This document shows positions 40,941 through 58,400 of a DNA stretch of 64,000 bases, in pieces. The position numbers and the translations under genes are program-made. The notes under the pieces were generated by a model. The model worked only from the letters and a program-made list of their open reading frames with translations, ran no database searches and was not told the origin of the DNA. How positions within the stretch are numbered: position 1 is the first letter of the stretch; each line of letters begins with the position of its first letter. The stretch is from Candidatus Atribacteria bacterium UBA6251 (GTDB lineage: Bacteria; Atribacterota; Phoenicimicrobiia; Phoenicimicrobiales; Phoenicimicrobiaceae): positions 2,910 to 66,909 of the forward strand of contig DJVR01000028.1 of assembly GCA_002441285.1 (NCBI GenBank), written 5' to 3'.

Positions 40941-40964
40941 GTTATTTTAAATGAGTACCAGGGA

Positions 40965-41753: not shown

Positions 41754-41783
41754 ATTTTTTTAAAGGAATAGAAAGGAACAAAA

Positions 41784-41945
41784 ATGAATCAAAAAGAGGA
41801 AAAAGGCAAGGGCTTGACCGAGCTCTCTATATCTAAGCTTTCTCAAGAAGATATATTTTTAATCGATCAAATGGATAAACCCTTTTTAATTGTTTATCTA
41901 TTTATTTTCATTATAGGAATTATTCTTACCATTCTGGGCATATAA
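41784..41945 (+). CDS. Small hypothetical membrane protein preceding the SSS transporter
   Basis: A 53-codon ORF not in the track: MNQKEEKGKGLTELSISKLSQEDIFLIDQMDKPFLIVYLFIFIIGIILTILGI. It has one C-terminal TM segment and ends 18 nt before the transporter start. No family recognised. Confidence 0.35.
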   Translation: MNQKEEKGKGLTELSISKLSQEDIFLIDQMDKPFLIVYLFIFIIGIILTILGI

Positions 41946-41963
41946 GAGAGGAGAATTGAGAAG

Positions 41964-43430
41964 ATGGAGATAACTCCGCAATTAATTATCCTGGTAGTCT
42001 ACTTTGTTTTAATTATTTTTTTGGGTATTTTAGCTATGAAGAAAGTAAAAGGTTCTGAAGATTTACTCGTTGCGGGTAGAAGTTTAGGATTAATGTATGT
42101 CTCCGTTTCTATTGCCGCTGAATATATGGGTGGATTAGGAACTATTGGTACAGCAGAGGTAGCTTTTAATCAAGGGATGGGAGTTATTTGGTATCATATT
42201 GCTTCTGCTTGTGGGTTAATGCTTTTTGGATTTGCGTTTGCCCATTATTATCGAAAATATAATGTGATTACTGTTCCGGAATATTTATATTACCTTTATG
42301 ATGTAAAAAGTTGGAAGGCTGCCTCAATTTTAAATGTGGTAGGTTATTGGTTTTTTACTATTATTCAAATGACTGCTCTGGGCTCCTTGATTGCCAGCGT
42401 TACCGGTTTTGATATAAAGTGGTGTGTTCTGATTAGTGGCTTGGCAATGACTATTTATTTATTAGCTGCCGGGATGTGGTCGGTGGCTTTTACCAGTGTA
42501 GCTTTTATGCTTACCATCGGTAGTGGTATTCCGTTAGCTTTTTGGTGGGTTATGAAACACGAGGTACCCTTACTTATTAACTCCGGAGGAGTAGGAGGGT
42601 TTGCTGGTTTAGCTAATGCGCTCAGTAGTATTGGATTAAATTCTGAACATCTGATGAGTCCCTTTAGTTTAGGTTTTATGGTAATTTTAGGATATTTTTT
42701 GGGAGGAGTGCTGGGTATACCTGCAGCCCAGGCTACGGTTAATTATTCTTTTGGAGCACGTAATTGGAAAGTTGCCAGGTTGGCTCCTGTTCTAGCTGCT
42801 ATTTTAATTCTACCTTTAAGTATCTGGACTGGTTCAATGGGTTTATTTGCCCGAGCTGCGGGGCTTACTACTAATCCCAAGCTTGCTTTAGGAGTTACCC
42901 TGATGAATATAAATCCAATTATTGGAGGGATTGGAATAGCGGGAATATTTGCAGCCTTAATTTCGACAGTGGCTGGAATATTATTTGCCTGTGCTTCCAT
43001 TATGGCCAAAGACATCTGGCAAAGATGGCTTCACCCTGATCAAGATGATAAATATTTGGCTCGCTGGACTAGATTATGGATTTTAATTATCGGGATTAGC
43101 TCTGCCTTTGGAGCAATGACTTTACCTAAGATTTTACAACAAGCTTATTTTGTATATTCTATAAGAAGTGCTTTAATGATCTGCGTAGCTTTTGGCCTCT
43201 GGTGGAAAGCGGCTCACCCCAGAGCAGCCTTCTGGAGTATGATTATAGCTTTAATAGGTGGTACTATGTATCAGTTTAATCTTCCGATTAATTTTCAAGC
43301 ATTTTTTCACTTACATATTGCGGTTTGGTGTGGATTATTGAGTTTTATCTCCTTTATAATTATTAGTCTATTTTCTAAGTGGACTGCTCAAACTGCGAGT
43401 GAGTTACCGCCTATGATTTTAAAGAAATAA
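41964..43430 (+). CDS. Sodium:solute symporter (SSS) family transporter
   Basis: 488 aa, about 13 hydrophobic segments. The N-terminal region ...LLVAGRSLG...SIAAEYMGG...G is typical of SSS (PutP/PanF-like) carriers. Confidence 0.8.
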   Translation: MEITPQLIILVVYFVLIIFLGILAMKKVKGSEDLLVAGRSLGLMYVSVSIAAEYMGGLGTIGTAEVAFNQGMGVIWYHIASACGLMLFGFAFAHYYRKYNVITVPEYLYYLYDVKSWKAASILNVVGYWFFTIIQMTALGSLIASVTGFDIKWCVLISGLAMTIYLLAAGMWSVAFTSVAFMLTIGSGIPLAFWWVMKHEVPLLINSGGVGGFAGLANALSSIGLNSEHLMSPFSLGFMVILGYFLGGVLGIPAAQATVNYSFGARNWKVARLAPVLAAILILPLSIWTGSMGLFARAAGLTTNPKLALGVTLMNINPIIGGIGIAGIFAALISTVAGILFACASIMAKDIWQRWLHPDQDDKYLARWTRLWILIIGISSAFGAMTLPKILQQAYFVYSIRSALMICVAFGLWWKAAHPRAAFWSMIIALIGGTMYQFNLPINFQAFFHLHIAVWCGLLSFISFIIISLFSKWTAQTASELPPMILKK

Positions 43431-43438
43431 GGAGGAAA

Positions 43439-43627
43439 ATGGTGATGTATACTTTTCTTTTTCCATCATTTCTTAAATTAGATTTAATAGTATGGGGGGT
43501 TTTAATAATTATATTTATCCTTTTTACTAATTATATTCATAAATTACCTGCTAATGCTATAGATGATTGTCAGGCTAAGGCCATAGAAAATAAAAAGAGA
43601 TTAGGAATTAAAATCTATAAAATATAA
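43439..43627 (+). CDS. Small hypothetical membrane protein following the SSS transporter
   Basis: 62 aa with one or two hydrophobic segments. GGAGG lies just upstream. No family recognised. Confidence 0.3.
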   Translation: MVMYTFLFPSFLKLDLIVWGVLIIIFILFTNYIHKLPANAIDDCQAKAIENKKRLGIKIYKI

Positions 43628-43734
43628 AATAGGAAAGAAAAAATTAAAAAATATAATAGAAGTTTTTTTAAGTTGTAAAGATATACGGATCAAATTAAAA
43701 TATTTAGCTAAGGATAGAAAAGGAAAATATTCAA

Positions 43735-44856
43735 ATGGAGAAGAATATATCAATCATTTTTACGGTAAATCCAGGAGCTACTTCTACTAAATGTGCTTTA
43801 TATGAGGTTGTCAAGGAAAATTTGAAAGAATTAAGTTCAGATACTATTGATCACCCCAGTGAAATTCTTTCAAAGTTTAAAAATATATCTGCTCAGTTAG
43901 ATTATCGAGAGGAATTGGTTCGTAATTTTATTAAAACCTATCTTCCTATAAAAGGAAAAATAGTAGCTTGTGCTGGTAGAGGTGGGATGCTTACTCCTGT
44001 TCCTAGTGGAGTAATTAAAATAAATGAAGAATTACTTGATTTTTCTTTAAATAGGCCAGTTTATCAACATGCTTCTAATTTAGGTGCTCCCTTGGCTTAT
44101 CGGGTAGCTCAAACTTATAAGGTTGAAGCTTTTATAGTTGATCCAGTTAGCGTGGATGAACTTTCTCCACTGGCCAGAATTTCGGGAAGTCCAGATTTTG
44201 AGAGGTTTAGCTTTGTTCATGCCCTAAATATTCGAGTCACTGTTCGTAAATTGAGCGAAAGATTAAATAAAAACTTTGAAGAAATTAAATGTGTAGTCGC
44301 ACATCTGGGAGCAGGTTTTTCTATTGCTGCTTTTGCAAATGGGAAAATAGTGGATAATGATAATCGTATGGAATCTGCCCCTTTTACTCCGGAGAGGGCT
44401 GGAGGAATTCCACCTATCCCTCTAGTGGAAGCATGTTTTTCTGGTAAATATTCCAAAGAAGAGATATTGAGAAAATTATATGGTGAAGGAGGAATATATG
44501 CCTATTTAAAGACTAAGGATATGAAAGAAGTAGAAAGGCGGGTAAGAGAGGGAGAAGAATATGCTTCCTTAATTTATGAGGCTATGATTTATCAGATTTG
44601 TAAGGAGATTGGAGCCATGGCTTCAGTAATGGATTTTAATTTAGACGGAATTATTCTTACCGGAGGTTTAGCTAAAGGTCAGCTATTAGTAGAAAAGATT
44701 ACCAGAAAAGTTCAAAAGATAGGGAAAATATACCTTTATCCAGGCAGCAATGAGAATGAAGCTCTAGCGCTGGGAGTTTTACGTGTACTTTTAGGCAGGG
44801 AGAAATTTATGGAGTGGCCAATTAAAATGCATAATCATAATATAAAAAAGGGGTGA
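43735..44856 (+). CDS. buk: Butyrate kinase
   Basis: 373 aa. INPGATSTKCALYE (ASKHA phosphate-1 motif), VAHLGAGFSIAA, ILTGGLA. Followed by ptb. Confidence 0.9.
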   Translation: MEKNISIIFTVNPGATSTKCALYEVVKENLKELSSDTIDHPSEILSKFKNISAQLDYREELVRNFIKTYLPIKGKIVACAGRGGMLTPVPSGVIKINEELLDFSLNRPVYQHASNLGAPLAYRVAQTYKVEAFIVDPVSVDELSPLARISGSPDFERFSFVHALNIRVTVRKLSERLNKNFEEIKCVVAHLGAGFSIAAFANGKIVDNDNRMESAPFTPERAGGIPPIPLVEACFSGKYSKEEILRKLYGEGGIYAYLKTKDMKEVERRVREGEEYASLIYEAMIYQICKEIGAMASVMDFNLDGIILTGGLAKGQLLVEKITRKVQKIGKIYLYPGSNENEALALGVLRVLLGREKFMEWPIKMHNHNIKKG

Positions 44857-44866
44857 AAAGAAAAAA

Positions 44867-45799
44867 TTGATTAGAAGTTTTAAAGAATTGAAAGAATTAG
44901 TAATCAGTTTAACTCCTTTAAAAATAGCAGTAGCTGCTGCCGAAGATGAAAAAGTAATTGAAGGGATTAAGTTAGCTCGGGAGTTAGGAATAGTAAAAGA
45001 CCCAATTTTAACCGGAGATAGAAATAGAATAACTGAGATAATTAGATTATTGGGTGAAAATATTACTCATTATGATATTCGAGAAGCTAGAGATGAAGCA
45101 GAAGCTGCTAGAATTGCGGTTAAAGCGATAAGAGATACAGAGGCACAGATTTTAGTTAAAGGAAGATTAGAAACGGTATACTATTTAAAAGCAATTCTAG
45201 ACAAAGAGCAGGGGATAAAGGACTCTGAAGTTCTTTCTAATCTTACTATGTTTGAGATGGATAGTTACCATAAATTTATTGCAGTTACTGATAATGCTAT
45301 TATTCCTGTCCCTACTTTGGAAGAAAAAAAGGCTATCATCGAAAATACCAAACCTCTCTGGAATGCTATCGGCATTGAAAAACCAAAAGTTGCAGTATTA
45401 ACTGCTATTGAATTGGTTAATCCGAAGCTATCTGCTACGGTTGATGCAGCCTGTTTATCTAAAATGGCAGAAAGAGGACAGATAGAAGGATTTGTAATAG
45501 ATGGTCCACTATCTTATGATACTGCAATAAATTTAATCTGTGCCCAGGATAAAGGTTTGTATAGCTCTGGAGTGGCAGGAGACCCTGATCTGTTACTTCT
45601 ACCTAATTTAGAAGCAGCAAATATTTTAGGTAAGAGTTATAAATTTCATGGAAAAGCTAAATCAGGAGGATTAGTACTAGGCGCAAAAGTCCCAGTGGTT
45701 TTAAATTCACGTTCTGATTCATCAGAAAGAAGATTGAATTCTATGTTAATGGCGCGAGCAATTGCTGAAAAGTTGGCATTTGGTTGCCATAAAAGTTAA
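44867..45799 (+). CDS. ptb: Phosphate butyryltransferase
   Basis: 310 aa. IAVAAAEDEKVIEGIKLARELGI...ILVKG...VLNSRSDS is the phosphate acetyl/butyryl transferase pattern. TTG start. Confidence 0.85.
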   Translation: MIRSFKELKELVISLTPLKIAVAAAEDEKVIEGIKLARELGIVKDPILTGDRNRITEIIRLLGENITHYDIREARDEAEAARIAVKAIRDTEAQILVKGRLETVYYLKAILDKEQGIKDSEVLSNLTMFEMDSYHKFIAVTDNAIIPVPTLEEKKAIIENTKPLWNAIGIEKPKVAVLTAIELVNPKLSATVDAACLSKMAERGQIEGFVIDGPLSYDTAINLICAQDKGLYSSGVAGDPDLLLLPNLEAANILGKSYKFHGKAKSGGLVLGAKVPVVLNSRSDSSERRLNSMLMARAIAEKLAFGCHKS

Positions 45800-45822
45800 A
45801 ATGTATCTAAAAGGAATATAAA

Positions 45823-46026
45823 ATGAAAACACCCAAAGTCTTAATAGATTATAAATTATGTAAGAGATGTGGTATATGTAGCCATTTTTGTCCTAAACAG
45901 GTTTTTGTATGTGATGAATTGAATGGTGCTCAGGTAGATAAAGAAGAAGATTGTATAGCTTGTGAAAAATGTGTAATTATGTGCCCGGAAATGGCTATAG
46001 AAATAATTACTCAAAAGGAGGAGTAG
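45823..46026 (+). CDS. 2-oxoacid:ferredoxin oxidoreductase delta subunit (2x[4Fe-4S] ferredoxin)
   Basis: 67 aa with CKRCGICSHFCP and CIACEKCVIMCP. Confidence 0.85.
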   Translation: MKTPKVLIDYKLCKRCGICSHFCPKQVFVCDELNGAQVDKEEDCIACEKCVIMCPEMAIEIITQKEE

Positions 46027-46030
46027 GATA

Positions 46031-47182
46031 GTGCCTGAGGCCAGGTTAGGAAAAAGATTATTTTTGCAGGGAAATATCGCAGTAGGAGAAGGAGCGATTG
46101 CGGCTGGAGCCAGGTTTTTTGCTGGTTATCCGATTACTCCTTCTTCTGAAATTGCGCATCATGCGGCCTATTGTCTACCTAAAGTAGGTGGTATCTATAT
46201 TCAGATGGAGGATGAGATTGGAAGTATTAGTGCAATAATTGGAGCAAGTATGGCGGGAGCAAAGGTATATACTGCTACCAGTGGTCCCGGGATTTCCTTA
46301 ATGAATGAAAATATTGGATTAGCCTGTATGGTTGAAGCTCCTTGTGTTTTGATTAATGTACAGAGAGCAGGTCCAAGTACTGGATTGGCTACTAAACCCG
46401 CGCAAGGAGATTTTTTTCAGATACGCTGGGGAACTCATGGCGATCATTCTATTATTGCATTATCTCCAGCTACAGTTCAAGAATGTTTCGATCTTACGAT
46501 TAAGGCTTTTAACTTTGCGGAGCGATTTAGAACACCAGTTTTTGTCCTAATGGACGAGATAATAGGAAAAATGCACGAAACCATTGTTGTTCCTAATCCT
46601 CAGGATATCGAAATTGAGAATCGTAAGCTGGCTACCTGCTTACCGGAAGAATTTAAGCCTTATGCTTATAATGAAGACTTGGTACCTCTTTTTGCGCCCT
46701 TTGGGGATATTCGCATTAATAAAGCTAATGGCTCAGGTCATGGCCAGGATGGTTTTCCTGATAATAATCCTGATAATTATGATCGATTGGTAAGGCGTTT
46801 AAATGACAAGATTGAAAAAAATAAAAAAAGGATTTGTTTATATAAAACCTTTAATTGTCAGGATGATACAGAAATTTTAATTATTGCCTATGGTTGTAGC
46901 GTCCGTCCTGCTTTAGCGGTAATTGAACAAGCAGCCAGGTACGGATTAAAAATAGGTTTGTTACAGTTACAGACTCTATGGCCTTTTCCTGATGAGATTA
47001 TTCTGAAATATAGTAGAAAGGTGAAAAAAATTATTGTACCTGAATTAAGTTTGGGACAATTAAGATTAGAAATTACTCGTTATATTAAAGATATCCCTAT
47101 AAAAGGGGTAAATAAAGTTGGAGGAATGAGCATTACTCCAGAAGATATTATTAAAGTAATAAAAGCAGGAAATGAAGAATGA
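46031..47182 (+). CDS. 2-oxoacid:ferredoxin oxidoreductase alpha subunit (VorA/KorA-like)
   Basis: 383 aa. GNIAVGEGAIAAGARFFAGYPITPSSEI...TSGPGISLM. GTG start after AAGGAGGAG. Confidence 0.9.
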   Translation: MPEARLGKRLFLQGNIAVGEGAIAAGARFFAGYPITPSSEIAHHAAYCLPKVGGIYIQMEDEIGSISAIIGASMAGAKVYTATSGPGISLMNENIGLACMVEAPCVLINVQRAGPSTGLATKPAQGDFFQIRWGTHGDHSIIALSPATVQECFDLTIKAFNFAERFRTPVFVLMDEIIGKMHETIVVPNPQDIEIENRKLATCLPEEFKPYAYNEDLVPLFAPFGDIRINKANGSGHGQDGFPDNNPDNYDRLVRRLNDKIEKNKKRICLYKTFNCQDDTEILIIAYGCSVRPALAVIEQAARYGLKIGLLQLQTLWPFPDEIILKYSRKVKKIIVPELSLGQLRLEITRYIKDIPIKGVNKVGGMSITPEDIIKVIKAGNEE

Positions 47183-48000
47183 AATACACTGGTAAAAAAT
47201 TTATTAAAAAAGATTCTTTGCCCTTTTTCTGGTGTGCTGGCTGTGGCAATGGAATTATACTAGCCTGTCTAGTCAGAGCAATGGAAGAGAATAATTTTAC
47301 TCAAGAAAATACAGTTATAGTTACTGGTATTGGTTGCTGGGGTAAGGCGGATGATTATTTGAATACTCATACCTTTCATGGAACCCATGGCAGGGCATTA
47401 GCTATTGCTACTGGAATAAAACTGGCTAAACCCTCTTTGGAGGTAATTGTCCTGGTGGGGGATGGTGATGGTGCAACTATTGGAGGAAACCACCTTATTC
47501 ATGCTGCTCGAAGAAATATGGATATTACTGTAATTATGTCTAATAATTTAAATTATGGAATGACAGGTGGTCAATATTCTGGAACTACACCCTATGGATC
47601 GATCACTTCTACCTCTCGTTATGGTCATGGAGAAGACGAATTTAATATTTCAGAATTAGTCAAGGCTGCTGGGGCAGCATATGTAGCTAAAGAAACTATT
47701 GCCAATCCTTTACGGCTACAGAAATTTATTTCCAGGGCTTTAAAAAAGGAAAATGGGTTTCGTTTTGTGGAAGCTATGAGCATCTGTCCTACTCACTATG
47801 GTAAAGAGAATCGATTGGGCAAAGCAGCGGAAATGATTGAAGGGTTAAAGAAAAATAGTCTAAAAATAGATTTAATCAAAGATAGAAGAATAGATGAATT
47901 AACTGCTAAAATAATTGTGGGGGAATATATCGATAGAGAAGTAGATGGATATATAAAACGTTATAGAGAGATTCAGAAGAAAGCCCAAAATAAAAAATAA
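47179..48000 (+). CDS. 2-oxoacid:ferredoxin oxidoreductase beta subunit (TPP-binding)
   Basis: 273 aa. WCAGCGNG...GIGC...GDGDGATIGGNHLIHAARRN...NN..YGMTGGQ. ATGA overlap with the alpha subunit. Confidence 0.9.
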   Translation: MKYTGKKFIKKDSLPFFWCAGCGNGIILACLVRAMEENNFTQENTVIVTGIGCWGKADDYLNTHTFHGTHGRALAIATGIKLAKPSLEVIVLVGDGDGATIGGNHLIHAARRNMDITVIMSNNLNYGMTGGQYSGTTPYGSITSTSRYGHGEDEFNISELVKAAGAAYVAKETIANPLRLQKFISRALKKENGFRFVEAMSICPTHYGKENRLGKAAEMIEGLKKNSLKIDLIKDRRIDELTAKIIVGEYIDREVDGYIKRYREIQKKAQNKK

Positions 48001-48017
48001 TTTTTAAGGAAAAGATT

Positions 48018-48554
48018 ATGATGAAAAATACTTATGAAGTAATAATTAGTGGCATAGGTGGTCAGGGCACGGTAGTTAGTGGAGCGATTTTAGGTGAAGC
48101 AGCTAGTTCTTATGATAACAAATTTGCGGTAATGACTTGCACTTATGGTACGGAAGCAAGAGGCACCTTTGCTAAGTCTGATATTTTAATTAGCGATAAT
48201 TTTATTCCCTATTATGAGGCTTTAAATCCAGATATTATATTAGTTTTATCTGATAAAGCTTACCCCTATATTAAAAATAGAATAGATAAAGAAACTATAG
48301 TAGTAATTAACTCCAATGAAGTAAAGAATTATGAAAAAATTTTGGGAAAAGTTTATGCTTTACCACTTTCTGAAATGGCGGTTAAAGTAGGATCTCTCCA
48401 GGCATTAAATATGATTGCCCTGGGATTTATGGTAGGATTAACTCAGATGATCAGTCGAGAAGCATTAATAAAAACAGTAGAAAATAAATATAAAAATAAA
48501 AGAGATTATCTAATTAATATTAAGGCCATAGAAGAAGGATGGAAGATGATTTAG
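48018..48554 (+). CDS. 2-oxoacid:ferredoxin oxidoreductase gamma subunit
   Basis: 178 aa. ISGIGGQGTVVSGAILGEAA is typical of gamma subunits. Confidence 0.85.
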   Translation: MMKNTYEVIISGIGGQGTVVSGAILGEAASSYDNKFAVMTCTYGTEARGTFAKSDILISDNFIPYYEALNPDIILVLSDKAYPYIKNRIDKETIVVINSNEVKNYEKILGKVYALPLSEMAVKVGSLQALNMIALGFMVGLTQMISREALIKTVENKYKNKRDYLINIKAIEEGWKMI

Positions 48555-48603
48555 AGAAAATATCTAAGAATTTAATAAAGTTAAGGAGATGAAACAGGTA
48601 AAA

Positions 48604-49740
48604 ATGAAAGCAATTGTGTTAGGATGTGGTTTAGTTGGAAGGTTGATAGCTCGAGATTTATCTCAAGATAAAGAATTTGAAGTAACAGTAGCTGATATCC
48701 AGGAAAACAGATTAAAGCAAATACAAAAGGAATTAAATTTAAAAGTTGTAAAAGTAGATTTTTCCATTCCTAGTGATATCCAGAAAATAGTAGCCGATCA
48801 AGATATAGTAATTGGTGCAGTGCCGGGCTTTCTGGGTTTTAAAGTTTTAAACGCAGTGGTTAAAGCAGGGAAAAATATGGTTGATATTTCCTTTATGGCT
48901 GAAGATGCGCTGCAGCTTGATTCTTTAGCTAAAGAAAAAGGAGTAACTGCGGTAGTAGATATGGGAGTAGCCCCAGGAATGAGTCATATGATAACAGGAT
49001 ATGTAGATAGTTTATTAGAAGAAACTGAAAGCGCTACCATTCTGGTAGGGGGACTTCCAGTTACCCGAGAATGGCCTTATGAATATAAAATATCCTGGTC
49101 TCCAATAGACGTGCTAGAAGAGTATATACGGCCTGCCAGGGTGGTGGAAAGTGGAAAAATAATAGAAAAACCGGCACTTTCTGATCTTGAACTGGTTAAT
49201 CTTCCTCCCATTGGAACTTTAGAAGCTTTTAATACTGATGGCCTTCGCAGCCTACTTCATACCTTAAAGATTCCTACCTTGACAGAAAAGACTTTGCGCT
49301 ATCCAGGATATGCAGAGAAAATGAAAATGCTAAGAGAGACGGGATTTTTTAATCAAGAACCAGTAGAAATTGGAAAAGTAAAGATTAGACCTATTGAATT
49401 TACTTCAAAATTGCTTTTTTCGCAATGGGAATTAAAAGAAGGCGAAGAAGAGTTTACGATAATGAGAATAATAGTACAAGGAAAAAAGAGGGAGAAGAGG
49501 TTTATTTACACTTATGATTTGTTAAATTATTACGATAAGAAAGAAAAAACCACCTCTATGTCTCGCACTACTGGCTTTCCTTGTGCAATTATGGCTCGTC
49601 TGGTAGTTCGGGGAGAATATTCAGTTAAAGGTATTTGCCCACCTGAAATTATTGGTAAAAATCACCAGATATTTTTTAAAGTATTAAAAGAGTTAGAAAA
49701 GAGAAATGTTATTTTTAAAGAAAAAATAGTGGAAATATGA
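48604..49740 (+). CDS. Saccharopine dehydrogenase family protein (NAD(P)-binding N-domain plus C-domain)
   Basis: MKAIVLGCGLVGRLIARDL Rossmann start and Sacchrp_dh-like C-terminal half. I prefer ATG 48604 because the AGGAG at 48584-48588 abuts the listed ATG 48589 with no spacer. Confidence 0.7.
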   Translation: MKAIVLGCGLVGRLIARDLSQDKEFEVTVADIQENRLKQIQKELNLKVVKVDFSIPSDIQKIVADQDIVIGAVPGFLGFKVLNAVVKAGKNMVDISFMAEDALQLDSLAKEKGVTAVVDMGVAPGMSHMITGYVDSLLEETESATILVGGLPVTREWPYEYKISWSPIDVLEEYIRPARVVESGKIIEKPALSDLELVNLPPIGTLEAFNTDGLRSLLHTLKIPTLTEKTLRYPGYAEKMKMLRETGFFNQEPVEIGKVKIRPIEFTSKLLFSQWELKEGEEEFTIMRIIVQGKKREKRFIYTYDLLNYYDKKEKTTSMSRTTGFPCAIMARLVVRGEYSVKGICPPEIIGKNHQIFFKVLKELEKRNVIFKEKIVEI

Positions 49741-49860
49741 TCAAAAATAAGTAGAAAGTTTAGAAACGAAATTTTTAATTAGAAAGGAGGATTAGATTAA
49801 AAATTTAATCTACTCATTTATTTGGCAGGTTGAGATTACTTGTATTTAAAATAAATACAA

Positions 49861-50024
49861 GGTAGAGGTGCGGATATTAATGAGTAAAGGCAAAATAAAA
49901 TAATTAGCCTTGAAAGGTATATCCGCCGAAGCAAGAAAGATTATAAAATCTTCTTGCTGGGCTTATAGTGAATAACTATAAGACTGTCATCAAATCTTTC
50001 CCCTGATTTAGATGGAGCGCTACC
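49861..50024 (+). promoter_or_regulatory. Lysine riboswitch (L-box) aptamer
   Basis: All conserved L-box blocks are present in order: GGTAGAGGTGCGG...AATGAGTAAAGG...TGAAAGG...TCCGCCGAAGC...CTGGGC...GACTGTCA...[P5 hairpin CATCAAATC/GATTTAGATG]...TGGAGCGCTACC. P1 is GGTAG (49861-65) pairing with CTACC (50020-24). Confidence 0.85.
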
Positions 50025-50077
50025 TATTTGTCTGGTAGAGGTCTTTATTTAATAATGGGGAAGGGAAGCTTATATTT

Positions 50078-50116
50078 AAGCAATCAATGAAGACTCTATC
50101 ATTGATTGCTTTTTTT
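50078..50116 (+). terminator. Intrinsic terminator of the lysine riboswitch expression platform
   Basis: 13-bp perfect stem, AAGCAATCAATGA (50078-90) pairing with TCATTGATTGCTT (50099-50111), with an 8-nt loop, running into TTTTTTT. It ends ~90 nt before the ATG at 50205. Confidence 0.85.
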
Positions 50117-50204
50117 ATTTATTAGATTCTTTATTCTTAAATATCTTTTTAAAATAATTAACTAATTAACCGACTAACTAAATAACTTAAAAGGAGGAAA
50201 ATAT

Positions 50205-51458
50205 ATGAAGGTATTAATTTTTGGTGGTTCTGGTAAGATGGGTTCTGCAGTTGCCTGGGATTTAGTCAAAAATGATAAGATTGGAGAAGTAGGGATTATT
50301 GGGATTGCCGGAAGAAAAGAAGATAGTTTAGAAAAGGTAAAAAAGTGGATAGGTAGTGAAAAGTTGGTACTACATAATATCGATGTGAACAATCGGAAAG
50401 AAACAATGAATTTAATGGAAAGGTATGATGTAGGAGCAATTGCTTTACCCGATAGAAGAAGTAGTTATAAAGTAGTAGAAATGGCTATTGAAGTGGGTTT
50501 GAATATTGTGGATATTTTGGAAGAGTATCATAGAAGACCAGATAAATATGAGGTAGAGGGGTTAGAAATACCCTCAGGGATGAGCTTAAGAGAATATGGG
50601 GAACTACTTCATCATAAGGCGGTAGAAAAAGGAGTGACTTTTGTCGATGGAGCAGGTTTTGCTCCAGGATTAACTAATATTACTCTAGGCGAAGGTATTA
50701 GAAAATTGGATCAGGCTGATTCTGCTATTGCTAGATGCGGTGGGATTCCGGCAAAAGAGTTTGCTGAACATCATCCTCTAAAATATGTGATAACCTGGGC
50801 TTTTGAACATGTATTACGAGAATATATGATTAAAGTAGAAGTGATAAAAGATGGTAAAATTATGGAAATAGATGCGATGAGTGATTTTGAAGAGTTTAGA
50901 TTTAAGCAACTAGGGAAAGACGAAAAACTGAGCTGCGCAGTTACTCCAGGGATGCCCAGTTTTGTACATACCAGACCATTTCTGAAAGAATTTGCTGAAA
51001 AAACCATTCGCTGGCCTGGTCATTGGGAAGGGGCTAAAGTATTGAAAGAATGTGGAATGTTGGATTCTAGCCCTGTGGAATTTAAGGATACCAAAATTCC
51101 ACCTCGAGAATTTTTATCTTTCGTAATGTTACCTAAGCTTAAACCCCTGCCAGGTGAATATGATATTTGTGTGATGTGGAATACAGTAAAAGGGGAAAAA
51201 GACGGAAAAAAAATCAGGATTGATTATTATATGTGGGAAGAAGCAGACCTTGAACACGGTATTTCTGCTATGGCTAGAGTAACTTCTTTCCCAGAAGCAA
51301 TTACTGCTATAATGATAGGTAAAGGAGAAATTACCGAAAAAGGGGTGATAGCACCTGAAGATGCTATTAAAGGAAGGATATACCAGAATTTTATTGAAGA
51401 ATTAAAGAAGAGGAGAATAAATATCCTGGAAATTTCTAAAATAGAATCTGATGAATAA
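50205..51458 (+). CDS. Saccharopine dehydrogenase family protein (second paralogue)
   Basis: 417 aa. MKVLIFGGSGKMGSAVAWDL Rossmann start, APGLTNI motif, Sacchrp_dh C-terminal-like half. AAGGAGG RBS. Confidence 0.7.
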   Translation: MKVLIFGGSGKMGSAVAWDLVKNDKIGEVGIIGIAGRKEDSLEKVKKWIGSEKLVLHNIDVNNRKETMNLMERYDVGAIALPDRRSSYKVVEMAIEVGLNIVDILEEYHRRPDKYEVEGLEIPSGMSLREYGELLHHKAVEKGVTFVDGAGFAPGLTNITLGEGIRKLDQADSAIARCGGIPAKEFAEHHPLKYVITWAFEHVLREYMIKVEVIKDGKIMEIDAMSDFEEFRFKQLGKDEKLSCAVTPGMPSFVHTRPFLKEFAEKTIRWPGHWEGAKVLKECGMLDSSPVEFKDTKIPPREFLSFVMLPKLKPLPGEYDICVMWNTVKGEKDGKKIRIDYYMWEEADLEHGISAMARVTSFPEAITAIMIGKGEITEKGVIAPEDAIKGRIYQNFIEELKKRRINILEISKIESDE

Positions 51459-51501: not shown

Positions 51502-52803
51502 ATGAGTAAATCTATCCTTATTAAAACTGATTTGCCTGGACCAAAATCTAAAGAGATTCAACAAAAAAGGGGGGAATATATTGCCAGACCTATGGGGAGT
51601 TCTTTATCACCGTGTTATATTGCTTCTGGGGAAGGTGCTTTAGTAAATGATGTTGATGGTAACCGTTTTATTGATCTTACTGGTGGTTGGGGGTGTTTGG
51701 TGGTAGGGCATTCCCATCCGAGAGTAGTTAAGGCGATTCAGAGGCAAGTAGAGGATTATTTACATACTGATTTTACCGCTGTACCTTATCAACCCTTGAT
51801 TGATTTAGCAGAAAAATTAGTAGAATTAGCACCAGGTAAAGAGCCTAAAACAGCGGCATTTTTTAATTCTGGAGCAGAAGCAGTGGAAAATGCAGTCAAG
51901 ATTGCGCGTGCTTATACCAAGAGACCCGCTATTGTAGTTTTTGAAAATGCTTTTCATGGTAGAACATTGTTGGCTATGACTATGACCCATAAAGCTATGC
52001 CTTATAAATATCACTTTGGACCCTTTGCACCTGAAATTTATCGTCTACCTTTTCCCACTCCTTCCCATCCCTTAGAATATACAATTTGGGAGAAAAAACT
52101 TCTTCAAATAGTAATTCCTGAATCCGTAGCTGCGATAGTGATTGAACCTATTCAGGGGGAAGGAGGTTTTAATGTCCCTCAGGAAGGATTTTTGAAATTT
52201 TTAAGAGAATTAACTAAAAAATATGGGATTTTAATGGTTCTTGATGAAGTACAAAGTGGAGTAGGAAGAACTGGAAAGTTTTATGCTATTGAAAATTGGA
52301 ATGTGGAACCGGATATTATCTGTTTAGGAAAATCTTTAGCTTCTGGATTACCTCTTTCAGCGGTAATAGCTAAAAAAATTATTACCGATAGTCTACCAGA
52401 GGGGTGTATTGGAGGGACTTATGTAGGAAATCCAGTAGCCTGTCGGGTAGCTCTGGAAGTTCTGGCTATAATTCGAGAAGAAAATCTTCTGGAAAGAGCT
52501 ATTCATATAGGAGAAATATTGAAAGAAAGATTTTTGCAAATGAAAGATAAATATTCTATAGTAGGAGATGTACGGGGCATAGGGGCTATGATGGCAATAG
52601 AATTAGTAAAGGATAGAAAGACTAAAGAACCAGCTACGGAAGAAACAGCAAGAATAATCCAGGAATGTGTTCAGCAGGGAGTATTTATTCCCAGTGCTGG
52701 TTTAAATAAGAATGTTTTAAGAATATTAGTTTCTCTATCCATTACCGATGAACAACTAAATGAAGCACTGGATGTATTGGAAGGAGCAATGAGTAGAATT
52801 TAA
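51502..52803 (+). CDS. Class III (omega-) aminotransferase, 4-aminobutyrate/5-aminovalerate aminotransferase-like
   Basis: 433 aa. LPGPKS...D.DGNRFIDLTGGWGCLVVGHSHP, FFNSGAEAVENAVKIAR, FHGRT, DEVQSGVGRTGK and LGKSLASG (PLP-lysine region) follow the GabT-type pattern. Confidence 0.85.
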   Translation: MSKSILIKTDLPGPKSKEIQQKRGEYIARPMGSSLSPCYIASGEGALVNDVDGNRFIDLTGGWGCLVVGHSHPRVVKAIQRQVEDYLHTDFTAVPYQPLIDLAEKLVELAPGKEPKTAAFFNSGAEAVENAVKIARAYTKRPAIVVFENAFHGRTLLAMTMTHKAMPYKYHFGPFAPEIYRLPFPTPSHPLEYTIWEKKLLQIVIPESVAAIVIEPIQGEGGFNVPQEGFLKFLRELTKKYGILMVLDEVQSGVGRTGKFYAIENWNVEPDIICLGKSLASGLPLSAVIAKKIITDSLPEGCIGGTYVGNPVACRVALEVLAIIREENLLERAIHIGEILKERFLQMKDKYSIVGDVRGIGAMMAIELVKDRKTKEPATEETARIIQECVQQGVFIPSAGLNKNVLRILVSLSITDEQLNEALDVLEGAMSRI

Positions 52804-52881
52804 AAAATAAAAAAATAACAAAAAAAGAGGAATATTGAAATTTTTATCGAAAATAAATTAAAATAAAGAGGGGATGTATTT

Positions 52882-54210
52882 ATGATATCTAAGAGAAAAA
52901 TTATTATTATGGGGGCAGCAGGTAGAGATTTTCATAATTTTAACGTCTATTTTAAAAATAATGAAAATTATGAAGTGATTGCTTTTACCGCTACACAAAT
53001 TCCAGATATTGCAGGTAGAGAATATCCGGCTGAACTTTCTGGTCCTTTGTATCCAAAAGGTATTCCTATATATCCAGAAGAAGACTTACCTGCTTTAATT
53101 AAAAAGTATAAAATTGATCAGGTAATTTTAGCTTATAGTGACATTTCATATCAATATGTAATGAACAGAGCTTCTCTGGTATTAGCCAATGGTGCAGATT
53201 TTAGACTAATGGGACCGAAAAATATTATGCTGAAATCAAAACTACCAGTAGTATCGGTATGCGCGGTAAGGACAGGTTGTGGCAAAAGCCAAACTACTCG
53301 CAAAGTAACTGATATTTTAAAAAAGAAAGGTTATAAAATTGCAGTAATCAGGCATCCTATGCCTTATGGTGATCTTAAAGAGCAGATCTGGCAAAGATAC
53401 GAAGATTATTCCGATTTAGATCGTTATAAATGTACTATTGAAGAAAGAGAAGAATATGAGCCACATTTAGATAGAGGGAATATTTTGTATGCCGGTGTGG
53501 ATTACCAAGAAATATTAACCAGAGCAGAAAAGGATGTAGATGTAATTGTTTGGGATGGGGGCAATAATGATCTTCCCTTTTATCAGCCAGATTTACATAT
53601 TGTAGTTACTGATCCTCATCGTGCTGGGCATGAAACAAGTTATTATCCAGGTGAAGCAAATCTTCGAATGGCGGATGTAGTAGTAATTAATAAGATAGAT
53701 ACTGCCGTACCAGAGAAAATAAATTTTTTACGGGAAAACATTTATAAGCTTGCCCCCCAAGCTATTTTGGTTGAAGCTGCTTCTCCTATTATAGTTGAGG
53801 GATATGAGCTGATTAGAGGTAAGAGAGTGCTAGTAGTTGAGGATGGGCCAACCTTAACTCACGGAGAGATGAAGTATGGGGCAGGAATTATTGCTGCCCA
53901 AAAATTTGGAGCCAAAGAAATAGTAGACCCTAGACCTTATGCTGTCGGTAGCATCAGAGAAACTTATCAAAAATATCCAGCAATAGGTACTCTATTGCCA
54001 GCTATGGGGTATGGTAAAAAGCAGATTAAAGAGTTAGAAGTAACCATAAACTCAACTGACTGTGATTTGGTAATTGTAGGTACTCCTATAGATTTAGGAA
54101 GGATAATTCAAATAAATAAAAAACTAATAAGAGTAAAATACGAATTGCAAGAAATTGGAAAGCCTGATCTGGAGGAGGCTATCAGCACCAAGATTGAAGA
54201 TAGGAGGTGA
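52882..54210 (+). CDS. P-loop NTPase of the cyclic 2,3-diphosphoglycerate synthetase-like family (function unknown here)
   Basis: 442 aa. IIIMGAAGRDFHNFNVYF N-terminus and internal P-loop AVRTGCGKSQTT. The family assignment is from memory of similarly annotated bacterial proteins. Confidence 0.45.
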   Translation: MISKRKIIIMGAAGRDFHNFNVYFKNNENYEVIAFTATQIPDIAGREYPAELSGPLYPKGIPIYPEEDLPALIKKYKIDQVILAYSDISYQYVMNRASLVLANGADFRLMGPKNIMLKSKLPVVSVCAVRTGCGKSQTTRKVTDILKKKGYKIAVIRHPMPYGDLKEQIWQRYEDYSDLDRYKCTIEEREEYEPHLDRGNILYAGVDYQEILTRAEKDVDVIVWDGGNNDLPFYQPDLHIVVTDPHRAGHETSYYPGEANLRMADVVVINKIDTAVPEKINFLRENIYKLAPQAILVEAASPIIVEGYELIRGKRVLVVEDGPTLTHGEMKYGAGIIAAQKFGAKEIVDPRPYAVGSIRETYQKYPAIGTLLPAMGYGKKQIKELEVTINSTDCDLVIVGTPIDLGRIIQINKKLIRVKYELQEIGKPDLEEAISTKIEDRR

Positions 54211-54391
54211 GGATTAAAGTTAAAAAACTGAATATTTTTATTATATCGGGTTTTATAAGAAGCTGATATAATATTCGAGGTTAATGGTAGAATTTTAAAA
54301 ACTACCTATATAAGGGGGAAAATTTTTTATACTAAGAAGTAAAATCACAGTATTTGTACTCAAAATAAAGAAAGGAGAGATATTTTAAAAA

Positions 54392-56068
54392 ATGTCTTAT
54401 TATCATCCACATATTAAGAAAATTTTACTCTTTTTGTTTATAGCCATAGTCTTGGTAACTTTTTTTGGGAGTATTTGGGCTCAAGAAGAAGAGCCTAATG
54501 TGAATTATGGTTTTTTATCTCTTTTGCCTCCTTTGGTAGCCATTGTATTGTGTTTTATAACTAAGCAGGTACTAGCTTCTCTTTTTATTGGTATCTGGGT
54601 GGGAGCTACTATTTTATCAGGATGGAATCCTTTGGCTGGTGTCACTACGACGGTAGGTTATATAGTTGATAATGCAGCAGATAGTTGGAATGCTACTATT
54701 TTATTATTCGATTTTGTAGTAGGAGGACTTATTGGTTTAATCTACCTTTCGGGAGGAGCTTATGCTTTTGTAAAAAGTATTACCGATAGAGTAAAGAACG
54801 CAAGAGGTGGACAGTTTACAGCTTGGCTTTTTGGTTTAATTATATTCTTTGATGATTATGCCAATACTGCGGTAGTAGGTAATGCTTTTAGACCGGTAAC
54901 TGATAAGTTGGGCATTTCTCGTGAAAAGTTTTCCTATATTGTCGATTCTACCGCCGCTCCAGTTGCTTCTTTAGCTCTTATTTCTACCTGGATTGGTTAT
55001 GAAGTAGGGCTTATTGGTGATGCTATCGAAGGTTCTTCAGTAACCCTTACTCCTTACACTATCTTCTTGCAATCTATCCCATACCGTTTCTATAGTATTT
55101 TTGCCATCATATTAGTCTTATTTATTGCCTTATCACAGAGGGATTATGGTCCAATGTTAAAAGCAGAGTATAGAACCAGAACTACAGGGAAGGTCTTTGC
55201 TGATGGGGCAACCCCACTCTCTGGAGGTAGCCAATTAAAGGTTTTAGAAGGTGCTCCTCAAAAAACTATAAATATGGTAGTTCCTATTATAGCTTTGGTA
55301 GTAATAAGTATATTTGGAATGTGGTGGACGGGAGGTGGAACCTCTACTGGGTCCTTTACTGAGGCTATTTCCAATGCTGATGCTATGACTGCCCTTCTAT
55401 GGGGAGCAATATTTGCAGTAATTATTGCTGTAATAATGTATAAAACACAGGGGATCGCCACTCTGGCAGATATGATGGATGCCTTTATAGATGGTGCTAA
55501 GATGATGGTATTGGCCAATTTAATCTTACTTTCTGCCTGGTCTATTGGTAGTGTTTGTGATGAGATTGGAACTGCTCCTTACGTAGTAAATGCAGCAAAA
55601 GGAATTATTTCTCCAGTTTTACTACCTATGGTTCTATTTTTAGTCTGTAATATAATTTCATTTTCTACTGGTACTTCTTGGGGTACTATGGCTATAGCTA
55701 TGCCTATTGCTGTTCCATTAGCGCTCGCTCTGGGTGTTCCTTTACCTTTAGGGGTATCTGCAGTATTAACAGGTTCAGTAATGGGTGATCATTGTTCACC
55801 TCTTTCAGACACTACTATTATGTCTTCAATGTTTTCCGGTTCAGATCATATGGATCATGTGAAAACCCAGATTCCTTATTCTTTAACTGCAGATGGAGTG
55901 GCTATATTAGCCTACATTCTAACCGGAAGTGGAATGTCAGTTGCCTTAATATTACCTTTGGGAATAATTTTGGTTGGAATTTTACTCTATCTATTTTCCA
56001 GTATCTCTGCCAAGTCAGCCGGTATTTCATTCCCCTTACCCGAACTTAAGGCAAAAGAAACAAAATAA
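54392..56068 (+). CDS. NhaC-family transporter (Na+/H+ antiporter family; candidate amino-acid carrier)
   Basis: 558 aa and highly hydrophobic. DDYANTAVVGNAFRP and STGTSWGT are characteristic of NhaC-type carriers. Confidence 0.75.
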   Translation: MSYYHPHIKKILLFLFIAIVLVTFFGSIWAQEEEPNVNYGFLSLLPPLVAIVLCFITKQVLASLFIGIWVGATILSGWNPLAGVTTTVGYIVDNAADSWNATILLFDFVVGGLIGLIYLSGGAYAFVKSITDRVKNARGGQFTAWLFGLIIFFDDYANTAVVGNAFRPVTDKLGISREKFSYIVDSTAAPVASLALISTWIGYEVGLIGDAIEGSSVTLTPYTIFLQSIPYRFYSIFAIILVLFIALSQRDYGPMLKAEYRTRTTGKVFADGATPLSGGSQLKVLEGAPQKTINMVVPIIALVVISIFGMWWTGGGTSTGSFTEAISNADAMTALLWGAIFAVIIAVIMYKTQGIATLADMMDAFIDGAKMMVLANLILLSAWSIGSVCDEIGTAPYVVNAAKGIISPVLLPMVLFLVCNIISFSTGTSWGTMAIAMPIAVPLALALGVPLPLGVSAVLTGSVMGDHCSPLSDTTIMSSMFSGSDHMDHVKTQIPYSLTADGVAILAYILTGSGMSVALILPLGIILVGILLYLFSSISAKSAGISFPLPELKAKETK

Positions 56069-56097
56069 ATAAAAAATTATTTTATTGATCTGGGAAA

Positions 56098-56144
56098 AAT
56101 GAAGTCATCTTATCTGGAAAATAAAAAGATAGGATGGCTTCATT
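56098..56144 (+). terminator. Long hairpin after the NhaC-family gene (possible terminator)
   Basis: 17-bp stem, AATGAAGTCATCTTATC (56098-56114) pairing with GATAGGATGGCTTCATT (56128-56144), with two G-U pairs and a 13-nt loop. The downstream T-run is weak. Confidence 0.4.
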
Positions 56145-56231
56145 AAGTTTAATAAAATTATGATTTAAAACTTATTCTCAGATATTTTCTTATAGTGTAA
56201 TGGAAAGGTAATAAAAAGGAGGAAATTTTTT

Positions 56232-58400
56232 ATGACTCAAATCAAACAAGAAGAGAACAATATATTAACAACTTTTAATTTTGAACCAGGTAAGGTGGAC
56301 AAGGGATATACTGATAGACGTTTATATATTAATCTTTCTAAGAATAAGATTGAGGAAAGAAGCATCGAAACTAGAATAAAGGAGACTTTTACTGGTGGTA
56401 GGGGTTACGGAATATGGTATTTATGGCAGGCTATTACACCTAAGACCAAATGGAATGACCCAGAGAATGAAATAATTTTTTGTACCGGACCCATCTGTGG
56501 AGTTACTCAGTACTCTGGAACCGGGAAAACCCATGTAGTATCTCTATCTCCAGAAACTGGAACAGTTAATGATAATAATGTAGGCGGTTATTTTGCCCCT
56601 TTCTTAAAATTTTCTGGTTGGGATTTATTGGAAATTCAGGGCAAAGCAAAAAAAGATGTGATTATTTTCATTGATGGAAATAAAGGAAAAGTTTATATAG
56701 AAGAGGTAGAAGGATTAGATTCTAATACCTATTTTCTAACGGAAAAATTAACTGCAAGATTTGCTGATGATGAGAAAGATAAACGGAATATAAGTGTGGT
56801 TAGTTCAGGAATAGGAGCTGAAAATACCCATTTAGGAATTTTAAATATTAGTTGGTATGATAGTCGAAGAAAACATGTCCGCATCAAGCAGGCTGGTCGA
56901 GGTGGTACCGGAACAGTATTTAGAGACAAAAAGATATTGGCTATAGTAATCAAATATTCCAGGGTTACTGCAAATTCTAATAAAGTGGCTAACCCTGATT
57001 TAATTGCCCAAGCAGGGAAAAGAATAACCAAAGAAATCTTAGAATTGGATCACCTCCAAAACGGAATGCGTGAAACCGGAACCGTGAATCTGATAGATCA
57101 TATGCAGAAATTTAATTGTTTACCAGTACACAATTTTAAGTTTGGTTCACATCCTGAAGCGGACAAAATTGCTAATAAAGTATGGCATCAGCGTATGACT
57201 CAGAATCAGGCGGGTGATTCTTGTTGGATAGGTTGTAATTTACGTTGTTCACATGGGGTAGATAATTTTGAATTAACTACTGGCCCCCTGAAAGGCAAAA
57301 AGGTTTTAGTAGATGGACCAGAATATGAAACTACTGCTGGATTTGGTGGTAATTGTGGATGCTTTAATTCAGATTTTGTATTAGAAGCGAATTTTTACTG
57401 TGATCACTATGGTTTGGATACTATTGGAGTGAGTACTACTATAGCATTTCTAATGGAATGCTATGAAAATAATATCATCGATAAAAACATAACCCAAGGG
57501 TTAGAACTTAATTTTGGAAATACGGCAGCGGCTTTAGAATTGATTCATCAGATGGCAGAAGGAAAAGGCTTTGGCAAAATTGCTGGTTTAGGGATTAGAA
57601 AGATTAAAAAAATTCTGGTGGAAAAGCATGAAGCAGATGAAAAATTCCTACAAGATATCGGGATGGAATGTAAGGGAATGGAGTTTTCCGAATATGTTAC
57701 CAAAGAATCTTTAGCTCAACAAGGAGGATATGGTATAGCTAACAAAGGGCCTCAACACGATGAATCCTGGTTAATTTTTATGGACCAGGTAAATAATCAA
57801 ATTCCTACTTTCGAGGACAAAGCCGAAGCTCTTCATTATTTTCCATTATTTCGAACCTGGTTTTCTATTGTAGGTTTATGTAAATTACCCTGGAACGATA
57901 TTGAACCCAGTGACAATAAGAAAAAATACCATGGTATTGAAGCAGCAAAAGTTCCGGAACATGTAGAGAACTATTGTTGGATTTTTGAAGGGGTAACCGG
58001 CAAAAAAATTACTCCTGAAGAGTTAATTTTACAATCAGAGAGAGTACATAACTTGCAGAGAATATTCAATTTAAGAATGGGCTTTGGTACTAGAGAATAT
58101 GATCAGATTCCCTATCGGGCAATGGGGCCTGTTACCATAGAAGAATACGAATCACGCAAAGATTTTTATGATCAACAACTAAAAGAAATAATGAAATTAG
58201 ATGTTGAAAATAAAACTACTGAAGAAAAGATGAAAATTCTTAGAGTTTATCGAGAAGAACAGTATCAGAAACTTTGTGATGCTGTTTATAAACGGAGAGG
58301 ATGGAGTAATAAAGGTGTTCCCACTCTAGAGACTATAAAGAAATTAAGGATAGATTTTCCAGAAATTCTAGAAGTAGTTACCCAAATTGATCCTGAGTAG
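56232..58400 (+). CDS. Aldehyde:ferredoxin oxidoreductase family (tungsto/molybdopterin) enzyme
   Basis: 722 aa. N-terminal AOR domain (GYTDRRLYINLSK...FTGGRGYGIWYLW) and Cys-containing [4Fe-4S] region (CWIGCNLRCSH). From memory it is longer than the ~600-aa archaeal AOR/FOR prototypes and closer in size to E. coli YdhV-like members. Confidence 0.85.
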   Translation: MTQIKQEENNILTTFNFEPGKVDKGYTDRRLYINLSKNKIEERSIETRIKETFTGGRGYGIWYLWQAITPKTKWNDPENEIIFCTGPICGVTQYSGTGKTHVVSLSPETGTVNDNNVGGYFAPFLKFSGWDLLEIQGKAKKDVIIFIDGNKGKVYIEEVEGLDSNTYFLTEKLTARFADDEKDKRNISVVSSGIGAENTHLGILNISWYDSRRKHVRIKQAGRGGTGTVFRDKKILAIVIKYSRVTANSNKVANPDLIAQAGKRITKEILELDHLQNGMRETGTVNLIDHMQKFNCLPVHNFKFGSHPEADKIANKVWHQRMTQNQAGDSCWIGCNLRCSHGVDNFELTTGPLKGKKVLVDGPEYETTAGFGGNCGCFNSDFVLEANFYCDHYGLDTIGVSTTIAFLMECYENNIIDKNITQGLELNFGNTAAALELIHQMAEGKGFGKIAGLGIRKIKKILVEKHEADEKFLQDIGMECKGMEFSEYVTKESLAQQGGYGIANKGPQHDESWLIFMDQVNNQIPTFEDKAEALHYFPLFRTWFSIVGLCKLPWNDIEPSDNKKKYHGIEAAKVPEHVENYCWIFEGVTGKKITPEELILQSERVHNLQRIFNLRMGFGTREYDQIPYRAMGPVTIEEYESRKDFYDQQLKEIMKLDVENKTTEEKMKILRVYREEQYQKLCDAVYKRRGWSNKGVPTLETIKKLRIDFPEILEVVTQIDPE

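Follow-up and report, generated by a model that had tools for sequence, protein, structure and literature searches.

A leader on the forward strand of contig DJVR01000028.1 from Candidatus Atribacteria bacterium UBA6251 (assembly GCA_002441285.1) probably contains a lysine riboswitch that turns transcription on, and not off, when lysine is bound. The DNA analysed was a stretch of 64,000 nucleotides (nt) of this contig (the window; all coordinates are positions in it), in which the leader lies between two genes encoding saccharopine-dehydrogenase-family proteins, SDH1 upstream and SDH2 downstream. It consists of a lysine aptamer (L-box), a switching strand and an intrinsic terminator, the last placed between the aptamer and the start codon, as a relay-type ON riboswitch requires. 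Four segments, A to D in the order of their transcription, provide the pairings of the proposed relay: A:B is an anti-antiterminator, B:C an antiterminator and C:D the terminator. On the sequence comparisons and folding models described below, a probability of roughly 0.8 is given to the leader being a lysine-ON transcriptional riboswitch that works through this relay.

In the proposed mechanism, B would invade the unlocked aptamer when lysine is absent, starting from a CUACC/GGUAG hairpin, and the invasion would zip into the 24-bp A:B anti-antiterminator. C would be left free, the C:D terminator would form and transcription would stop at the T-run (OFF). When lysine is present, the aptamer would be locked and B left single-stranded, able to take C as it emerges and to make a 16-bp antiterminator before D is made. 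B:C would block nucleation of the terminator hairpin and RNA polymerase would read through (ON), provided that B:C holds until the polymerase has cleared the T-run.

The aptamer and the pairing segments

The Rfam lysine family (RF00168) matched the window over model positions 1-182 of 182 with a score of 118.6 bits (E 4e-31), where the gathering score is 30 bits, and is the sole Rfam family above threshold in the 64 kb. The five-helix junction and the core motifs AGAGGNGC, GCCGAAG, CUGUCA and GGAGNGCUAC are all found in the covariance-model alignment. An earlier reading of this DNA, made from its letters alone (the sequence-only reading), had called the aptamer canonical, and the full-model match bears this out. 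The aptamer is an ordinary member of RF00168, with L-lysine as its predicted ligand.

Segment A (Table 1) is common to the aptamer and the anti-antiterminator. Segment B has two alternative partners: either A or, through 50033-50049, segment C. In the unconstrained minimum free energy (MFE) structure of the window leader, A:B is 24 bp long and displaces P1 and P5. It is built from three blocks (49996-50003 with 50057-64, 50008-18 with 50041-52 and 50020-24 with 50034-38) and is mutually exclusive with the closed aptamer, as an anti-antiterminator should be. The energy of this duplex is -30.5 kcal/mol (z = -4.0 relative to shuffle controls). Parts of it were apparent in the sequence-only reading, which had noted that the P1 3' strand (CTACC, 50020-24) can pair with GGTAGAGGTC (50034-43), a downstream duplicate of the P1 5' strand GGTAGAGGTGC (49861-71), and that GGGGAAGG (50057-64) is complementary to the P5 loop CTTTCCCC (49996-50003). 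The P1 pairing stands, although the complete helix has 24 bp and is not limited to CTACC/GGTAG; the P5 loop complementarity proves to be the outer part of the same helix.

B:C joins 50033-50049 to 50086-50101 in a helix of 16 bp that contains a single bulged G and two G-U pairs. Its duplex energy is -17.3 kcal/mol (z = -3.3) and is equalled by 0.8% of dinucleotide shuffles of B; among 2370 tiled 27-nt windows, the only one to equal it is B:C's own. The pairing had been described as 9 bp between the P1 mimic and GACTCTATC (50092-50100). The positions given for this and the other segments are all correct and the two strands do pair, but over 16 bp instead of nine, and the helix opens the top of the terminator stem and not the loop only, extending 5 nt into the 5' arm. 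Because B:C crosses the stem with no spacer nt, the geometry implies that it cannot coexist with the lower part of the terminator stem. The terminator hairpin itself is followed by a T-run at 50112-50121.

Conservation and folding of the leader in Atribacterota

Orthologues of the first gene, SDH2, were collected in a scan of one genome per species (80 loci) and in a metagenome scan (80 more); loci are labelled L001 onwards. The aptamer was present upstream of the orthologue in 9/9 Atribacterota genome loci with enough upstream DNA (L001-L009, of which L008 is cut at a contig end), with scores of 98-120 bits in the relatives. The Rfam scan also covered six loci from outside Atribacterota and found no lysine aptamer upstream of their SDH2 orthologues. 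A search with an nhmmer profile built on aptamer and platform together detected the leader in 49 loci, all of them among those whose SDH2 is at least 67% identical to that of the window. These yielded 42 distinct full-length sequences, including the window's, which were aligned and on which the comparisons below are based. All 42 leaders, from Atribacterota genomes and metagenomes, precede the same saccharopine-dehydrogenase-family gene and share segments A-D. The core motifs of the aptamer are invariant or nearly so, and P2, P3 and P4 covary.

The three helices of the relay are all conserved. Pairing in the terminator is kept in 98.2% of cells, and six pairs show two-sided compensatory changes. 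For A:B, 82% of cells pair and eight pairs carry two-sided changes (24 cells), which was exceeded in 0/500 shuffles. B:C is kept in 98.4% of 546 cells, compared with 31-59% when the partner strand is slid by 1-3 columns. The consensus of B is GGTAGAG-TA-CTTCAT-CTAAA followed by a G-run, beginning a few nt past the P1 3' strand, and C takes in 2-3 nt of the terminator 3' arm, depending on the leader.

Across the alignment, the pattern of conservation is the strongest single argument for B:C. The positions of the terminator loop and stem top that face B are 97-98% conserved, equal to the aptamer core, and the pairing columns of B are 94-96% conserved. Conservation falls to 62% in the 2-nt internal loop of B, to only 50-62% at the nt predicted to be unpaired inside B:C (one in C and two in B) and to 71% in the linker from B to the terminator. 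Since a terminator loop need not be conserved for its own sake, the conservation seen here points to B:C. In a divergent clade (L009, L113, L114 and the partial L008) GGTAGAG/CTCTATC is replaced by AATAAAG/CTTTATT, and CTTCAT/ATGAAG by YTTTATC/GATGAAG, while in L081 both strands are altered so that a shifted B:C register pairs. These changes fit co-evolution of the B and C strands.

Scoring fixed consensus structures on each sequence gave erratic energies, as small alignment shifts broke helices, and per-sequence constrained folding was used instead. In 41 of the 42 leaders the unconstrained full-length MFE structure has both A:B (16-27 bp) and the terminator; B:C occurs in none. When the aptamer was excluded and the transcript ended just after C, 12-14 bp of B:C appeared in the MFE structure of every leader (42/42); in each case the antiterminator, which shares nt with the terminator, would be finished before the terminator 3' arm has been made. 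Run without knowledge of the model, RNAalifold returned a consensus of A:B plus the terminator, with P2-P4. It is the combination of competition with the aptamer and an intact terminator (41/42 free-state MFE structures) that makes A:B the mark of a terminated ligand-free state.

The order of events was followed in the window by a length scan of MFE structures, with P1 either free or forced. In free RNA, P1 and P5 hold to transcript end 50038; from 50044 B begins to take P1, from 50062 (50068 in the scan) A:B has all its 24 bp, and from 50110 the terminator is formed. With P1 forced, B:C is the MFE structure at transcript ends 50098-50104 and the terminator becomes so again from 50110, which is the expected order. 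A classical lysC-type antiterminator, in which the 3' half of the aptamer would pair with the 5' arm of the terminator, was present in no MFE structure, either of the 42 leaders or of the window length scan. The best such pairing has -4.6 kcal/mol, which 70% of shuffles equal, in agreement with the sequence-only reading, which had found none that was convincing. The ON logic that it proposed is likewise reproduced, computationally, by per-sequence folding of an architecture conserved in 42 distinct Atribacterota leaders.

Several features of the leader vary or recur outside these helices. Directly after the P1 3' strand is a C-run (alignment columns 181-189; region of 50024-50025 in the window), whose length differs between relatives, from two Cs in many of them up to about ten in L085; it is also long in L090, L146, L089 and L005. 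It lies in the loop between A and B, is able to pair with the G-run after B and, as a homopolymer, may be prone to slippage and so tune the switch. At the other end of the aptamer, a hairpin (P0) with a predicted energy of -7.4 kcal/mol in the window adjoins P1 directly, overlapping the first two nt of its 5' strand. The 5' end of the leader is probably at P0 or close to it. Compensatory variants (CUUGUAU/AUACAAG, CUUACAC/GUGUGAG and CUUACAU/AUGUAAG) preserve the hairpin in the main clade, and it is missing from the L009/L113 and L112 clades. It could act as a 5'-terminal stabiliser or stack on P1.

Further upstream, in the spacer between SDH1 and the riboswitch, there is a strongly conserved Shine-Dalgarno-like motif, AAGGAGGTG (window 49783-49791, AAAGGAGGA), which most relatives have in the same place, some 70-95 nt upstream of the aptamer. 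It is followed by AT-rich inverted or direct repeats (window 49794-49814, TAGATTAAA..TTTAATCTA). A small leader open reading frame after this motif was considered and rejected, as no conserved reading frame could be seen by eye. On the other side of the switch, many relatives carry a conserved TTTGGTAGATTTTTTATTAGCAAATATCATCTTAAAACT 5-45 nt past the terminator (for example, L002 ~505-545), which includes a third P1-like GGTAGA copy; the window has ATTAGATTC at this place (50117-50135). In the L120/L121 leader (L120 2191-2490) a different AT-rich hairpin, AAACTATTT…AAATAGTTT, follows the usual terminator position.

Alternative readings and known systems

A number of observations weigh against the lysine-ON reading. 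Comparative analysis of the antiterminator helix, which the sequence-only reading had asked of relatives, gave conservation as expected but little covariation: one pair is two-sided (3 cells, in one clade) and there are some G-U/A-U exchanges. Because covariation is so thin, much of the support for B:C is sequence conservation, and B is anyway under constraint, since it must pair with the conserved aptamer. A:B leaves the first half of B (AATAAAG) unsequestered in the L009 clade, and in L120/L121 the usual terminator is degenerate. No clear promoter or transcription start was located for the leader. That the downstream genes are catabolic is something we infer, because their enzymes are assigned by sequence and the aminotransferase falls below every NCBIfam equivalog cut-off. 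Finally, in full-length RNA with the aptamer sequestered the terminator still beats B:C, by 0-14.5 kcal/mol across the leaders and by 3.6 kcal/mol in the window. Since the terminator is thermodynamically the stronger, read-through would depend on kinetic trapping of B:C. Such trapping is how pbuE and similar direct-overlap ON switches are understood to function.

The scarcity of independent covariation and the weakness of B:C relative to the terminator would also suit a helix that is a non-functional by-product, with the resemblance of C to A due only to an ancient duplication or to the need of both to complement B. In that case the terminator would be constitutive, leaky or otherwise controlled (by a protein, Rho or RNA decay) and lysine would act through mRNA stability or have no effect. 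This is unlikely, since the loop positions that pair with B are held at 97-98% while the stem has six compensatory pairs and the linker varies, and the variable nt are exactly those predicted to be unpaired within B:C. Moreover, the divergent clade changes both strands together, L081 shifts the register on both, and the conserved, covarying A:B would have no output without B:C. The thermodynamic preference for the terminator, which persists even with the aptamer closed, would equally accord with a conventional OFF switch, where lysine promotes termination as in Bacillus subtilis lysC and the genes are lysine-repressed, for example as part of a biosynthetic aminoadipate-type route. NhaC-family genes stand behind L-boxes elsewhere without any known ON logic, and the experimentally characterised lysine riboswitches, those of B. 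subtilis and E. coli, are described as OFF switches (PMC11477304). An OFF switch would, however, need opening of the aptamer to bring about an antiterminator. Pairing of the aptamer's 3' half with the terminator's 5' arm is at chance level, and the actual competitor of the aptamer, A:B, leaves the terminator intact in all but one of the free-state structures. Butyrate kinase, phosphate butyryltransferase, 2-oxoacid:ferredoxin oxidoreductase and aldehyde:ferredoxin oxidoreductase (AOR) in the gene cluster also fit fermentation over biosynthesis, and lysine repression is therefore considered very unlikely here.

Most improbable is that the ON switch has translation, or a read-through transcript from the upstream operon, as its target in place of this terminator, the riboswitch serving mainly as an internal operon divider. 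The riboswitch begins just ~115 nt past the upstream same-strand gene, and the missing promoter would be explained. Internal position would, however, change only where the transcript starts and not the terminator-based ON logic. Control of translation was rejected: the distance from terminator to start codon ranges in relatives from <50 nt (L087, L101) to ~260 nt, and the ribosome-binding site takes part in no conserved pairing. The ribosome-binding site is outside the switch. Two relatives, L001 (~5850-5950) and L004 (~2310-2470), have an insertion of ~190 nt between terminator and ribosome-binding site, with a GC-rich hairpin …GGTCGGATAAATCCGACC…; it is lacking in the window and most other leaders and looks like a small repeat or mobile element.

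Among the closest known systems is the classical OFF L-box of B. subtilis lysC (RF00168), which has the same aptamer and an intrinsic terminator, and in which a downstream element likewise competes for the aptamer 3' strand. That element, the rival of P1, is in lysC the terminator 5' arm itself, so that an open aptamer antiterminates. In the window the corresponding element is B, placed upstream of the terminator and able to pair with its top and loop, and the logic flips to ON because this one extra inversion step has been inserted. Among other ON switches, the pbuE adenine and gcvT glycine riboswitches show ligand-dependent read-through that is controlled kinetically, as is proposed for the window, and in them too the terminator is thermodynamically more stable than the ON structure. 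In both, the aptamer 3' strand overlaps the terminator 5' arm and two structures compete. The window differs in that aptamer and terminator share no nt and are linked through B, with four segments and three mutually exclusive helices.

The same platform logic (terminator, antiterminator and anti-antiterminator) is found in an ON switch of Clostridium sp. ASF356, the flavin mononucleotide (FMN)-variant (subtype 2) riboswitch of norM, for which read-through was seen by transcription assay (PMC6298564). There too, part of the ligand-free aptamer holds the antiterminator strand, so that the terminator can form, and ligand binding frees the strand. Its aptamer class and ligand are unrelated, and the contested part is the right shoulder of P2, compared with the P5 3' arm and P1 3' strand in the window.

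Lysine-activated L-boxes have been proposed before, as the sequence-only reading had correctly remarked. A passage of PMC5584792, citing an earlier study, gives L-boxes ahead of kal, kce and kamA in Clostridium sticklandii, Fusobacterium nucleatum and Thermoanaerobacter as predicted to regulate positively. Set beside the window by description only, these likewise have the aptamer before lysine catabolic genes in strict anaerobes, and the L120 locus shares with them a lysine 2,3-aminomutase in the regulated unit. The window differs from them in its phylum, Atribacterota, and in having a lysine-6-dehydrogenase-like enzyme, an aminotransferase, NhaC and AOR in place of the 3,5-diaminohexanoate pathway; none of kamA, kamDE, kdd, kce and kal is among its five downstream genes. 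In the literature searched, ON lysine riboswitches are sequence-based predictions only. The novelty lies in the phylum, in the set of regulated genes and in a lysine aptamer joined to a relay platform that is conserved and well resolved; the riboswitch does not form a new class.

Probable regulated genes and a candidate lysine pathway

The genes on both sides of the riboswitch are on the same strand as the leader (Table 1). Their order, SDH1-[riboswitch]-SDH2-aminotransferase-P-loop-NhaC-AOR, is conserved in Atribacterota loci.

Table 1. Features of the riboswitch leader and of the genes around it (window coordinates)
Feature	Position	Strand	Description
Upstream cluster, not behind the riboswitch	43735..49740	+	butyrate kinase, phosphate butyryltransferase, four-subunit 2-oxoacid:ferredoxin oxidoreductase, SDH1
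SDH1	48589-49740	+	saccharopine-dehydrogenase-family
P0 hairpin	49839..49861	+	predicted; CUUGUAUUUA / UAAAUACAAG
Lysine riboswitch aptamer (L-box)	49855..50030	+	RF00168, 118.6 bits; P1 = 49860-65 with 50020-25
Segment A	49996..50024	+	P5 loop 49996-50003, P5 3' arm with junction 50008-50018, P1 3' strand 50020-24
Segment B, switching strand	50033..50064	+	mimic of the P1 5' strand GGTAGAGG, then TCTTTATTTAA, then G-run
Intrinsic terminator	50078..50111	+	terminator scan; 13-bp stem AAGCAATCAATGA / TCATTGATTGCTT, 8-nt loop AGACTCTA, then TTTTTATTTA
Segment C	50086..50101	+	top 5 nt of terminator 5' arm, 8-nt loop, first 3 nt of 3' arm
Segment D	50099-50111	+	terminator 3' arm
Ribosome-binding site and ATG of first gene	50190..50207	+	strong site AAAGGAGGAA (50190-99), ~80 nt past terminator
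SDH2	50205..51458	+	saccharopine-dehydrogenase-family oxidoreductase, 417 aa; Pfam Sacchrp_dh_NADP and Sacchrp_dh_C
Rest of likely regulated operon	51502..58400	+	four genes after SDH2
Class-III aminotransferase	51502-52803	+	nearest to 4-aminobutyrate (GABA) and 2-aminoadipate transaminases
P-loop protein	52882-54210	+	442 aa; NCBI name 'cyclic 2,3-diphosphoglycerate synthase' or GTPase
NhaC-family transporter	54392-56068	+	
Aldehyde:ferredoxin oxidoreductase (AOR)	56232-58400	+	

The genes following the aptamer look catabolic, as the sequence-only reading had supposed. For both flanking saccharopine-dehydrogenase-family proteins the best match in PDB is 3ABI (E 8e-30 for SDH2, E 3.5e-70 for SDH1), the L-lysine 6-dehydrogenase of Pyrococcus horikoshii (PMC10413350). 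SDH2 is predicted to be a divergent relative of this enzyme and SDH1 a closer homologue. SDH2 has hundreds of relatives with 75-89% identity, of which the named ones are Atribacterota (Caldatribacteriota) metagenome bins. The protein is unusually conserved: orthologues with 58-67% identity occur in many other uncultured anaerobic phyla (L010-L080, L115-L160), without the riboswitch or this cluster, among them Zixibacteria, WOR-3, Anaerolineae, Sumerlaeota, Ignavibacteria, Acidobacteriota and Aminicenantes. Their neighbourhoods outside Atribacterota vary, and peptidases sometimes adjoin.

The P-loop protein is 81-87% identical to the window protein in Atribacterota loci. Apart from a marginal CobW match it has no Pfam family, a search of solved structures in PDB gave no sequence relative, and its database names leave its role beside a tungsten-type AOR unexplained. 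In the upstream cluster, butyrate kinase is above NCBIfam cut-offs. This cluster probably belongs to the same pathway, of which it may be the constitutive or separately regulated half. An IclR-family regulator and a sodium:solute symporter are also encoded in the same-strand upstream stretch (window 40905-49740). In L120 the riboswitch-SDH2 unit is followed by the lysine 2,3-aminomutase (kamA-like, L120 3842-5107), and the L120/L121 variant has a MmgE/PrpD-family gene upstream.

Together the enzymes could form a self-consistent pathway in which every enzyme of the cluster is used. Lysine would be converted to 2-aminoadipate semialdehyde by the lysine-6-dehydrogenase-like enzyme and the semialdehyde to 2-aminoadipate by the tungsten-type AOR. 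The class-III aminotransferase would then give 2-oxoadipate, from which the 2-oxoacid:ferredoxin oxidoreductase would make glutaryl-CoA, and phosphate butyryltransferase with butyrate kinase would release glutarate and ATP. Such a lysine fermentation route was described nowhere in the literature searched, which also held nothing relevant on lysine metabolism in Atribacterota. The ON logic of the RNA and the fermentative gene content are separate lines of inference, and they agree. A broader proposal is put forward only tentatively: that the riboswitch is the lysine-inducible gate of a ferredoxin-linked lysine fermentation route widespread in Atribacterota, with NhaC as lysine importer, and the first lysine riboswitch with demonstrable ON logic.

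The leader offers a clean, phylogenetically supported test case, as mutations in the terminator loop should kill induction while leaving the terminator stem untouched. An unchanged aptamer that is rewired to the opposite output by a single inverter segment would also be useful for riboswitch engineering. For the saccharopine-dehydrogenase-family enzyme, found at 58-67% identity across many uncultured anaerobic phyla, lysine induction would be a functional lead. Atribacterota are abundant subsurface fermenters with almost no genetics, and in them a lysine-induced operon would point to the substrate of this otherwise unannotated gene cluster.

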